Source: Octopus vulgaris
Lineage: Eukaryota
Length of the DNA stretch: 64,000 bases
Assembly: GCA_951406725.2 (NCBI GenBank)
Contig: OX597828.1
Location: 42,470,001 to 42,534,000 of the forward strand
Reading direction: 5' to 3'
Shown here: positions 7,131 to 52,391 of the stretch, in pieces
Layout of the letters: the number at the start of each line of letters is the position of its first letter
How positions within the stretch are numbered: the stretch's first letter is position 1
The notes under the pieces: generated by a model
The model's database searches: none
The model's input: the letters and a program-made list of their open reading frames with translations, nothing else
Told to the model about the DNA's origin: nothing
Program-made: the position numbers and the translations under genes

Positions 7131-8272
7131 GTCATGAGTCCGAGAACTGGGGCTGCAGAGGGTGCAAGTGCACCTCCTAGAATTTTTGTTGGGTGCGAAA
7201 GGAAAAATTTGCACCCCTACTTACTTTTCTCAGGTTTAGAAAACTGAATAAAAAGTCATCTGAAAAATAGTGGATCAAAGTTGGGTTACTTAACAGAGAA
7301 CAAAAATAAATTAAAAACTAAAACCTTGCTTGTAAACATTTTTGGTCTGTGTAGTAGAGATTTAAACGATTTCTTCCTTTAATAATAGAGTTGAGCCTGC
7401 TTAACTTTATCGACTTTTGGGGGCCTGAAAGGCCATGGGTGATTACTTGTGAAATTTGAACTCAGAACGTAGACGGGTTGGAAGGGTACAACTAAATAGC
7501 TCAAATATATATTTTGCCTGATAGCCCCTTAATTGTTTTTGCTTCAATAATTTTATAGGGTCCATAAAATCTCAGATTACAAACGATTCTGTTTGGGGGA
7601 TAACAAATTAAAGCGGCCCCAAGATGAAACATTTTGTTGAACTCACACCCAAGTCAAATTCAATAGATTAAGATTAGATTAGTTAATAACTCATGTCCTT
7701 GGATTAGTTTCACAACTCGGTTTCCAATTTGCCATCCGTGGTTAATTTTCGTTCACGATAAGTGATATTAATTATAAGTTTAAGAAAGTGACAGTAAAGA
7801 AAGAAGTCACCTTCTGAATCTTTGCTAAACACAGAGAAACTAAAGTTTGGCGAATATTAGGATTCTATAAACAAACCATAATTGTATAATAAACGAAAAA
7901 CAAAACTGAAAAAGAGAAAAAAAAAAATCAAAATGTTGATATTTGGGATTTGTTAATTAATTAATTAGTTCACTGTTTGATTTATGCTATGACGTGTTTT
8001 AACTGTAAAGTTGTATCTTCCGATATCGGGGGAAACTCCACCTCTCTCTCTCTTTCACTGTGCGCTTTCATTGACCTGTTCTTTGGTCTCAAGATAACTA
8101 GTTCAAATGAGAAATCATTTAGGGATATATAACAACGTAGTTAAACCTATATCCTCCTACTACTACTCTTCACTGTAAGTAATCATCATCATCGTCATCA
8201 TCATCATCATCATACCCCCACATCGCGTTTCAATTATTATAAAAATGTAACTAGTTTGCATTTTAACTTATT

Positions 8273-28094: not shown

Positions 28095-28262
28095 TATGTG
28101 TGTATGTGTTTCTTTTCTGTGTATCTTTCTGTTGAAGAGCGTCGGCTCGAAACGTAAAAGACTTGTTTTATTTCTATTCCTGAGCGCCATACTAATACAA
28201 TTGTTTGGCTGTATTCCACCTGCCTTCGTCTTTTGTTTATTTTCATAAAGCTTCCCGTTATA
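28095..28262 (+). mobile_element. Penelope-like pseudo-LTR repeat with hammerhead-like motif (28124-28161)
   Basis: TCTTT-CTGTTGA-A-GAGCgtcgGCTC-GAAA-CGTA-AAAGA. Homologues at 29195-29378 (-), 39515-39680 (+) and a partial end at 56818-56890 (-). Confidence 0.65.
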
Positions 28263-28582: not shown

Positions 28583-29194
28583 GTGTGTGTGTGTGATCAC
28601 ACACTATTTATTTAATACAGGTTTCAAACTTTGGTACAAAGTCCGTAAATTGAGAGAAAGGGGGTACGTAGAGATTTGAACTCGGAACGTAAAGCTACTT
28701 ACCGAGAGAAAATATTTAGCAATGTGACCGTTGATCTGTCTATCTTAATGTTGTCCTCTAATAATATTAATTGAACCAATACACGGCTACGACTTGATCT
28801 CTTCTTGGAATCATAATGGCGTTGATCTCCCGTTTCGAGGTTCTAAGTTAAAATGTCTGATCAAGAATTTTGTCGGCTCAGTTAGGGTTGATCTCGAGTT
28901 AGAGAAACAAAATAAGCAAATCAGAATCGTTTGGTTGAAGGTTAAACATTCTGAATTGAAATGGGTAGGAATTGGTGAAGCTTAGTTGGTGATTCAATGA
29001 ATCTAGATTGTTCGTATTCCGTCGTTGCCGTCCTATTTGTGGTTTATATTAGCAATCAAAATGTGGACAAAGATTACGATAAAAGTCATGGTGTTAGTAG
29101 GAATGGTAATGAAGGTATTGCCGGGGTGATTACCTGCGATAGAATAGTTTATTCCGTGTGTATACACACACGAACTTATTTATAGGGAGAATTT

Positions 29195-29378
29195 ATAGGG
29201 AGAATTCACACACAAAAAAAAAAAGACGAAGTCAGGTGGTCTAGACAACAAACAGATGTATTAGTTTAACGCTCGGGAAGCAAAAAGGTCTTTAACGTTT
29301 CGAGCCTACGCTCTTCCACAGAAAGAAACACAGAAAGAAACCAGGAAAGAAAATAATGTATAGTGGCTAGCGATCTAT
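29195..29378 (-). mobile_element. Penelope-like repeat, second copy (motif 29289-29326)
   Basis: Minus strand TCTTT-CTGTGGA-A-GAGCgtagGCTC-GAAA-CGTT-AAAGA. Confidence 0.65.
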
Positions 29379-39514: not shown

Positions 39515-39680
39515 GTGTGTGTGTTCCTTGTTTCTCTCTGTGTTCCTTTCTGTGGAAGAGCGTAGGCTCGAAACATAAAAGACTTTTTCAATTCCTGAGC
39601 GTTATACTTAATACACCTGCTTGTTTTCTACACCACCTGTCTTCGTCTTTTGGTTTTTTGTTTTCGTTAATTCTCCCTAT
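39515..39680 (+). mobile_element. Penelope-like repeat, third copy (motif 39545-39582)
   Basis: CCTTT-CTGTGGA-A-GAGCgtagGCTC-GAAA-CATA-AAAGA, ends in (TA)n. Confidence 0.65.
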
Positions 39681-47452: not shown

Positions 47453-47644
47453 GCAAACTTGATGAGTATGTACTGTGATCAATAAAATATCGTGGTGGTG
47501 TATAAATATATTTACATATGTATGTATATATACACCACCACGATGTTTTATTGATCACAGTACATACTCATCAAGTTTGCATGTGTATATATATATATAT
47601 AAATAAACACACACACACATATATATATACGTATATATATATGT
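47356..47644. repeat. Long inverted repeat (fold-back)
   Basis: Arms 47447-47504 and 47529-47586 are complementary at 57 of 58 positions, 24-nt spacer. Symmetry continues outward through mirrored microsatellites. Confidence 0.97.

Positions 47645-52070: not shown

Positions 52071-52391
<321 letters not shown>

Follow-up and report, generated by a model that had tools for sequence, protein, structure and literature searches.

The stretch of DNA analysed here (the window) comprises 64,000 nucleotides of the Octopus vulgaris genome (contig OX597828.1, positions 42,470,001 to 42,534,000 of the forward strand). It contains the last coding exon of the nuclear receptor gene COUP-TF/Svp and, upstream of this exon, three small motifs with the architecture of a minimal hammerhead ribozyme (Table 1). 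Upstream of the window lie the DNA-binding exon of the gene, at about 69 kb, and the ligand-binding exon, at about 33 kb, while the donor of the last intron is 32.9 kb upstream of the window and the acceptor at 52116; together with the position of the last exon, this places all copies in one intron of about 85 kb. The initial annotation had assigned them to a COUP-TF intron, which is confirmed and can now be specified as the last one, with two copies in sense and one in antisense orientation. The three motifs are 5'-truncated 3' ends of an autonomous, recently active Penelope-like retrotransposon (PLE), which we refer to by its motifs as Neptune-type.

Table 1. Features of the window, with positions counted from its first nucleotide.
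Feature	Position	Strand	Remarks
pLTR remnant, 5'-truncated 3' end of a Neptune-type Penelope-like element	28105..28259	+	94-96% identity to pLTRs of EN-bearing and other copies; young U6/U7 lineage; left border (TG)n, right border (TA)n
Minimal type I hammerhead fold; core position 6 (28132) is U	28124..28161	+	Palindrome intact; sense to COUP-TF; predicted cut site after 28156
5'-truncated pLTR remnant	29191..29378	-	Older U6/G7 subfamily; antisense to COUP-TF
Minimal hammerhead fold U6/G7/U17	29289..29326	-	Palindrome intact; antisense
5'-truncated pLTR remnant	39525..39679	+	Older U6/G7 subfamily; flanked by (TG)n and (TA)n
Degenerate hammerhead fold	39545..39582	+	Palindrome broken; stem I 4 bp
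Last coding exon, COUP-TF/Svp nuclear receptor	52117..52391	+	Three copies in the preceding intron

All three motifs were recovered at the places first reported, with a chance expectation of 0.00 (none of 100 shuffles reached three). Their elements follow the type I order that had been described, i.e. stem I, the core box C3-U4-G5-U6-N7-G8-A9, an extra A, a 4-bp stem II, GAAA, a CG palindrome, U16.1-H17 and stem I', and the cleavage position proposed for the 28 kb copy is correctly placed. The copies at 28 and 29 kb possess the features of the minimal hammerhead (helix I, helix II, an extra nucleotide after A9, G10.1-C11.1, a palindromic stem III and H17). The 39.5 kb copy has indeed lost the palindrome that characterises the minimal type I hammerhead, and the full dimer helix is predicted not to be formable from it. 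Some details of the initial annotation had to be adjusted: a 5-bp stem I is found at 28 and 29 kb but not at 39.5 kb; the loop of the 28 kb copy does differ, but this difference is private to that copy; and the 38 nucleotides described as the repeat correspond to the motif, whereas the repeat proper measures 155-190 bp, over which the copies align past the motif to a common 3' end point. At 28 kb and at 39.5 kb, a (TA)n tract comes after this end point. Two subfamilies are represented in the window, one by the 28 kb copy and one by the other two. A local Rfam scan of the motif stretch at E<=10 gave no hammerhead match, and none was present among the best 150 of 722 Rfam matches to the whole window, where microsatellite matches dominate. 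Likewise, tblastn with the element protein gave no match inside the window, which contains only tail ends of the element. The stretch is represented by 20 contig rows from seven studies under five organism labels, all of them assembled contigs, with no RNA data set among those listed; of four sequencing runs, one covered the flank region at 28 kb, missing cover in the others not being evidence.

Two further features of the window were recorded. At positions 29177-29206, a short duplication is present at the 3' end of the antisense copy, possibly a PLE 'tail' or a target duplication. At 47458-47575, an inverted repeat measuring about 118 nt, nearly perfect and (TA)-rich at its centre, is possibly the remnant of a small DNA transposon; a miRNA match at the same place is under the gathering score.

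The suspected linkage of the motif to Penelope elements was borne out by full-length family members elsewhere in the genome, in which it lies downstream of an ORF with RT and GIY-YIG domains. The first link was provided by one copy of the 28 kb subfamily: the ORF upstream of it contains an RT motif, a Cys linker and a GIY-YIG domain. A protein search of the genome yielded 24,065 first-look candidates, of which 113 were scored and 30 loci returned; at 27 of these 30 loci the motif is found downstream of the EN domain on the same strand, always with U at position 6 (U6). Fifteen longer loci, chosen for long open frames, all carry the motif, and 11 of them carry it in both flanking repeats, 4,470-4,573 bp apart. 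The unit is about 4.5 kb long and consists of an ORF for RT and GIY-YIG with the motif in both pLTRs. The ORF of a full unit encodes DKG, an RT domain (PF00078/RVT_1, E 1e-7, above the Pfam cut-off), the Cys linker and a GIY-YIG domain (PF01541) whose motifs are visible at a score below the Pfam cut-off (E 0.005). For a 366-aa fragment, Pfam returned nothing, and a sequence search of the PDB gave no match. The relatives found for the RT numbered 302, many of them with PF01541. The ORF is uninterrupted in seven of the 15 long loci and the proteins are 97.8-99.8% identical, demonstrating that the family has been active recently.

Copies of the element share a fixed 3' end and a variable 5' truncation, and some form inverted pairs (L016/L017, L046); pLTR direct repeats from partial tandems thus occur together with inverted, 5'-truncated copies, as in other PLEs. 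A Cys-rich, Zn-finger-like linker is present between RT and EN, and the (TA)n at the 3' ends corresponds to microsatellite targeting. These are traits of Neptune, although the designation is a label taken from motifs, and the linker is also common to Nematis. We also considered a non-LTR retrozyme, i.e. short non-coding tandem repeats each with a hammerhead (10.64898/2026.07.22.740005), and rejected this assignment, the copies being dispersed ends of a coding element. One locus (L060) has two tandem copies and between them, at 7957-7990, a short fragment of the 3' end of the element in inverted orientation, resembling the inverted-truncated insertions of PLEs. Distant PLE-type RT fragments with 24-29% identity to the U6 protein, unlinked to the motif, were seen at 2127-3029 of L125/L221 and at 2256-2957 of L051.

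The initial annotation had proposed that the whole family carries U instead of the conserved A6. Using a tight pattern in which positions 6, 7 and the loop were left free, we obtained 20,197 exact matches in the 2.8-Gb genome and none with the reversed control. A6 is present in only 257 of these matches (1.3%), which are scattered across subfamilies, and A6U is therefore fixed family-wide and not a product of decay. The family does not have the canonical core with A6 (CUGANGA), and fully intact U6 folds amount to at least 14,839 copies. Samples drawn in other ways gave the same picture. An interior-free motif pattern produced 28,242 matches, the first 100 of which, taken from the start of one contig and hence not a random draw, included 98 family members with U6 in 92, A6 in four and C6 in two. 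Among 30 copies chosen by their downstream flank, U is present at position 6 in all 18 that extend to it with a complete motif, the other 12 being truncated, interrupted or deleted there. The ORF-linked loci (27 and 15) are all U6. We consider, with high confidence, the element to be correctly identified and U6 to be fixed.

A tree was built from 171 of 217 copies, with young copies subsampled, short ones dropped and positions 4, 6 and 7 masked. With modest supports, the U6 subfamilies appear as a ladder with the young family at its end, and the A6 copies are found at scattered places along it. In the oldest subfamily sampled (L137-L166), the first 100 of 704 matches have U in 77, C in 14, A in eight and G in one at position 6; this mixture suggests that the position loosened early and that the oldest U6 subfamily had minor source elements with C6 and A6. 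Motifs with the canonical core are also found in the same genome (7,530 matches; control 18), and most of those listed come from sister families in which stem II is the same and the flanks are homologous. A descriptor left free at positions 4, 6 and 7 was applied to 80 metagenome loci that encode relatives and identified 17 motifs in 16 loci, every one with A6, and no motifs in the shuffled loci. Since the sister families in this genome and all 17 motifs of the relatives, which come from other organisms, keep A6, U6 is derived.

A sister lineage with a 3-nt loop is represented by 12,316 matches (L197-L226, e.g. L203, G000:C1:2277048-2277077), and 73 of the first 100 of these have a U4C core. 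In the loci retrieved, the 1.5 kb upstream of its copies contained no EN domain; the lineage may be non-autonomous, or its 3' region may be longer. Of the hammerhead-bearing lineages counted in the genome, the two largest, A6U and U4C, would both have a weakened U-turn, and such variants may be recurring in Penelope-like elements. Further canonical minimal-hammerhead families with different stems were noticed in L124, L128 and L134 and about 270 bp upstream of the match in L115. Among the metagenome relatives, a U3-A8 core occurs in L287 (both repeats) and L311, and L303 has one U4C motif on the opposite strand.

To what extent the fold is constrained can be judged from six U6 subfamilies (10-48 copies each, 7-30% apart). 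None of the 30 core and stem positions differs between them, compared with 30 of 87 columns of the 3' flank (naive P 3e-6, a value that treats columns as independent). It should be underlined that most subfamilies were sampled by motif patterns, which introduces a bias towards conservation; one of the six was sampled mostly via the protein and another mostly via the downstream flank. Variation between the subfamilies is confined to N7 (four states), N17 (A or U, never G in the majorities) and the distal pair of stem I, while C3-G8, G5, A9, G12, A13, A14 and A15.1-U16.1 as well as the 4-nt loop are invariant in all six majorities. The absence of core and stem changes, at the same time as positions that are free in hammerheads (N7 and N17) vary, shows that the fold is still constrained. 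Covariation in stems I and II, which the initial annotation had named as a check, is evident across families, as seven of nine pairs changed on both sides in a set of 11 hand-picked rows of equal length and none of 500 shuffles scored as high; inside the U6 lineage the stems are invariant and no covariation was found. Single copies chosen by their flank do contain scattered core and stem mutations, so that the constraint appears to act on source elements.

We consider it moderately probable, on the combined analysis, that the U6 hammerhead of the intact element is a slowed cutter of tandem transcripts that depends on dimer formation and protein, and that the intronic copies are likely inert. 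A tandem-unit transcript would carry two hammerheads about 4.5 kb apart, whose 4-nt palindromes would pair to form stem III; cleavage of each strand 3' of H17 would then reduce the RNA to unit length. With U6, the cutting rate would be lower and a closed monomer fold would be favoured, so that cutting would come to depend on the dimer or on the RT/EN protein. Reverse transcription would usually stop early and leave thousands of single 3' ends in TA-rich microsatellites, including the three in the window. A broader proposal, to which we assign a rather low probability, is that the family-wide A6U hammerhead still has catalytic activity but is kept inactive in the monomer, with dimerization or the protein of the element as the activator, attenuated cutting being tolerated or even favoured during PLE expansion.

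Published data provide the frame for these proposals. PLE minimal hammerheads showed no cleavage as monomers and weak cleavage as dimers (PMC4209133, PMC6765202), and one PLE hammerhead cleaves only with the element's protein (PMC11167929). According to the same study, this hammerhead was not required for insertion in vitro, and RNA-seq ends were absent from its cut site (PMC11167929), and Naiad PLEs have spread without a detected hammerhead (10.1101/2021.04.23.441226). A natural A6C variant has low but real activity in Mg2+ and is rescued by Mn2+ (PMC3088659, PMC7151607), and in a mutational scan every change of the CUGA turn except the C3/G8 swap was low in activity (PMC9901934). As for our own folding predictions, the core box is predicted to pair with the palindrome in U6 monomers (pair probability medians 0.28-0.98 versus 0.00-0.11 in A6 copies of the same lineage), and the predicted minimum-energy folds of the dimer are not the catalytic dimer. 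Monomers of canonical A6 sister copies are also predicted to misfold, and the closed fold would therefore be no mark of lost catalysis. A single alternative helix strengthened by both A6U and U4C was considered and discarded: the pair is predicted in U6 but not in U4C (median 0.01), and the canonical sisters misfold too.

The main alternative to a slowed cutter is that the U6 motif does not cut at all and is retained in the pLTR as a signal, structural or protein-binding, for RNP assembly, the start of reverse transcription or promoter function, with catalysis dispensable. We regard this as possible but on the unlikely side. It would agree with the strong loss of activity in Mg2+ upon changes at position 6 (PMC3088659, PMC7151607, PMC9901934), with the predicted pairing of core box and palindrome in U6 copies, with PLE insertion in vitro without cleavage (PMC11167929), with the independent U4C of a sister lineage and with the invariant loop, which a pure ribozyme need not keep. 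What it accounts for less readily is that the variation between subfamilies falls on just those positions that are free in active hammerheads (N7, H17 and distal stem I), that G is absent from position 17 in every subfamily majority and that canonical A6 sisters are predicted to misfold as monomers as well. A motif dead since A6U and carried along in the pLTR as a neutral relic is a very improbable explanation: the scattered mutations of individual genomic copies and the partly motif-based sampling of subfamilies would be in line with it, but source elements kept 30 of 30 positions while their flanks diverged by up to 30%, and the conserved set includes the protein-sampled and flank-sampled subfamilies. 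The assumption of a family with a canonical CUGANGA master, of which the copies would be decayed members, can point to the existence of A6 matches and to the A6 and C6 copies among the first 100 of the oldest subfamily; the A6 matches are, however, rare and scattered and mostly have the N7 of the surrounding subfamily, and the 15 long young loci, all U6, already refute it for the young lineage, leaving it next to no probability overall.

The initial annotation had also raised the possibility that sense copies nick the pre-mRNA of COUP-TF, a developmental regulator; that they cut it and so tune this regulator we now judge extremely improbable. Two sense copies are indeed present in the last intron, the fold at 28 kb is intact and abundant family transcripts could in principle serve as partners in trans. 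Nevertheless, monomers of this hammerhead class did not cleave in the experiments reported in PMC4209133, and the only sense partner in cis has a broken palindrome; because the two sense copies would thus be unable to form a full dimer helix with each other, nicking is unlikely. Moreover, the copies belong to two subfamilies and look like ordinary 5'-truncated insertions. More than 20,000 remnants, of which these are three, are dispersed in tracts of simple repeats, and the density in COUP-TF, three in a gene of about 121 kb, is close to the genome-wide mean of 7-10 per Mb. The copies in the intron are likely to be inert passengers, and the finding says little on COUP-TF regulation.

Its interest lies elsewhere, as this genome offers a natural experiment on the role of the hammerhead in Penelope-like elements: closely related lineages combine one stem II with three different cores (canonical, A6U and U4C), and for A6U there are intact copies of the autonomous element. 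Should the U6 motif cut, the consensus of the hammerhead core would have to be widened, and at least 15,000 motifs in a single genome would be escaping standard descriptors; should it not cut, the fold would be maintained in an active PLE in the absence of catalysis.

Hammerheads in the pLTRs of PLEs are already known, and the part that appears to be new, as judged from sequence, is the family-wide A6U. In print we found no A6U hammerhead, nor was there one in the examined part of the supplement of Cervera and De la Pena (PMC4209133), Lunse et al. and supplement file 1 lying outside this search. A description of this octopus Penelope hammerhead family was not found in print either. The variants of Lunse et al. 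reportedly number roughly 150,000. As presented in a review (PMC6765202), the stem-III-deficient small hammerheads of these authors resemble the octopus motif in their association with PLEs, short palindromic stem III and cleavage as dimers.

A close counterpart is the PLE minimal hammerhead (Cervera and De la Pena 2014, PMC4209133), whose published consensus the octopus motif fits everywhere but at position 6. Common to both are the type I order, a helix I of 4-5 bp, the extra nucleotide after A9, G10.1-C11.1, the palindromic 15.2-16.2, H17, the presence in both pLTRs and the occurrence mostly as dispersed single copies, while the helix II of 4 bp in octopus is shorter than usual. In the part of the published alignment examined, every row has A6, and the sole core variant described is U3-A8; a descriptor requiring A6 would therefore miss the octopus U6 family. 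Natural core variants described in PMC3088659 and PMC7151607 are A6C of phage Bcep176, U3-A8 and U4C. The A6C ribozyme, which cuts slowly in Mg2+ and well in Mn2+, is alike in having a change at position 6 and an otherwise intact core. These known variants are rare single ribozymes, whereas in octopus position 6 has changed to U within a fold that is minimal and dimeric, and the change is fixed in a family of at least 14,839 fully intact copies. At the level of the element, the EN+ PLEs Neptune and Nematis (10.1101/2021.04.23.441226) are alike in the single ORF with DKG, RT, Cys-rich linker and C-terminal GIY-YIG and in the partial tandems, inverted truncated ends and microsatellite insertion; unlike in these, the 3' part of the octopus unit is long and of low complexity. 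The Poseidon PAc hammerhead of Anolis is likewise located in a PLE pLTR, and according to PMC11167929 it has a C3/G8 core and cuts only with the element's protein, making it a model for how U6 could be tolerated and not a test of it.
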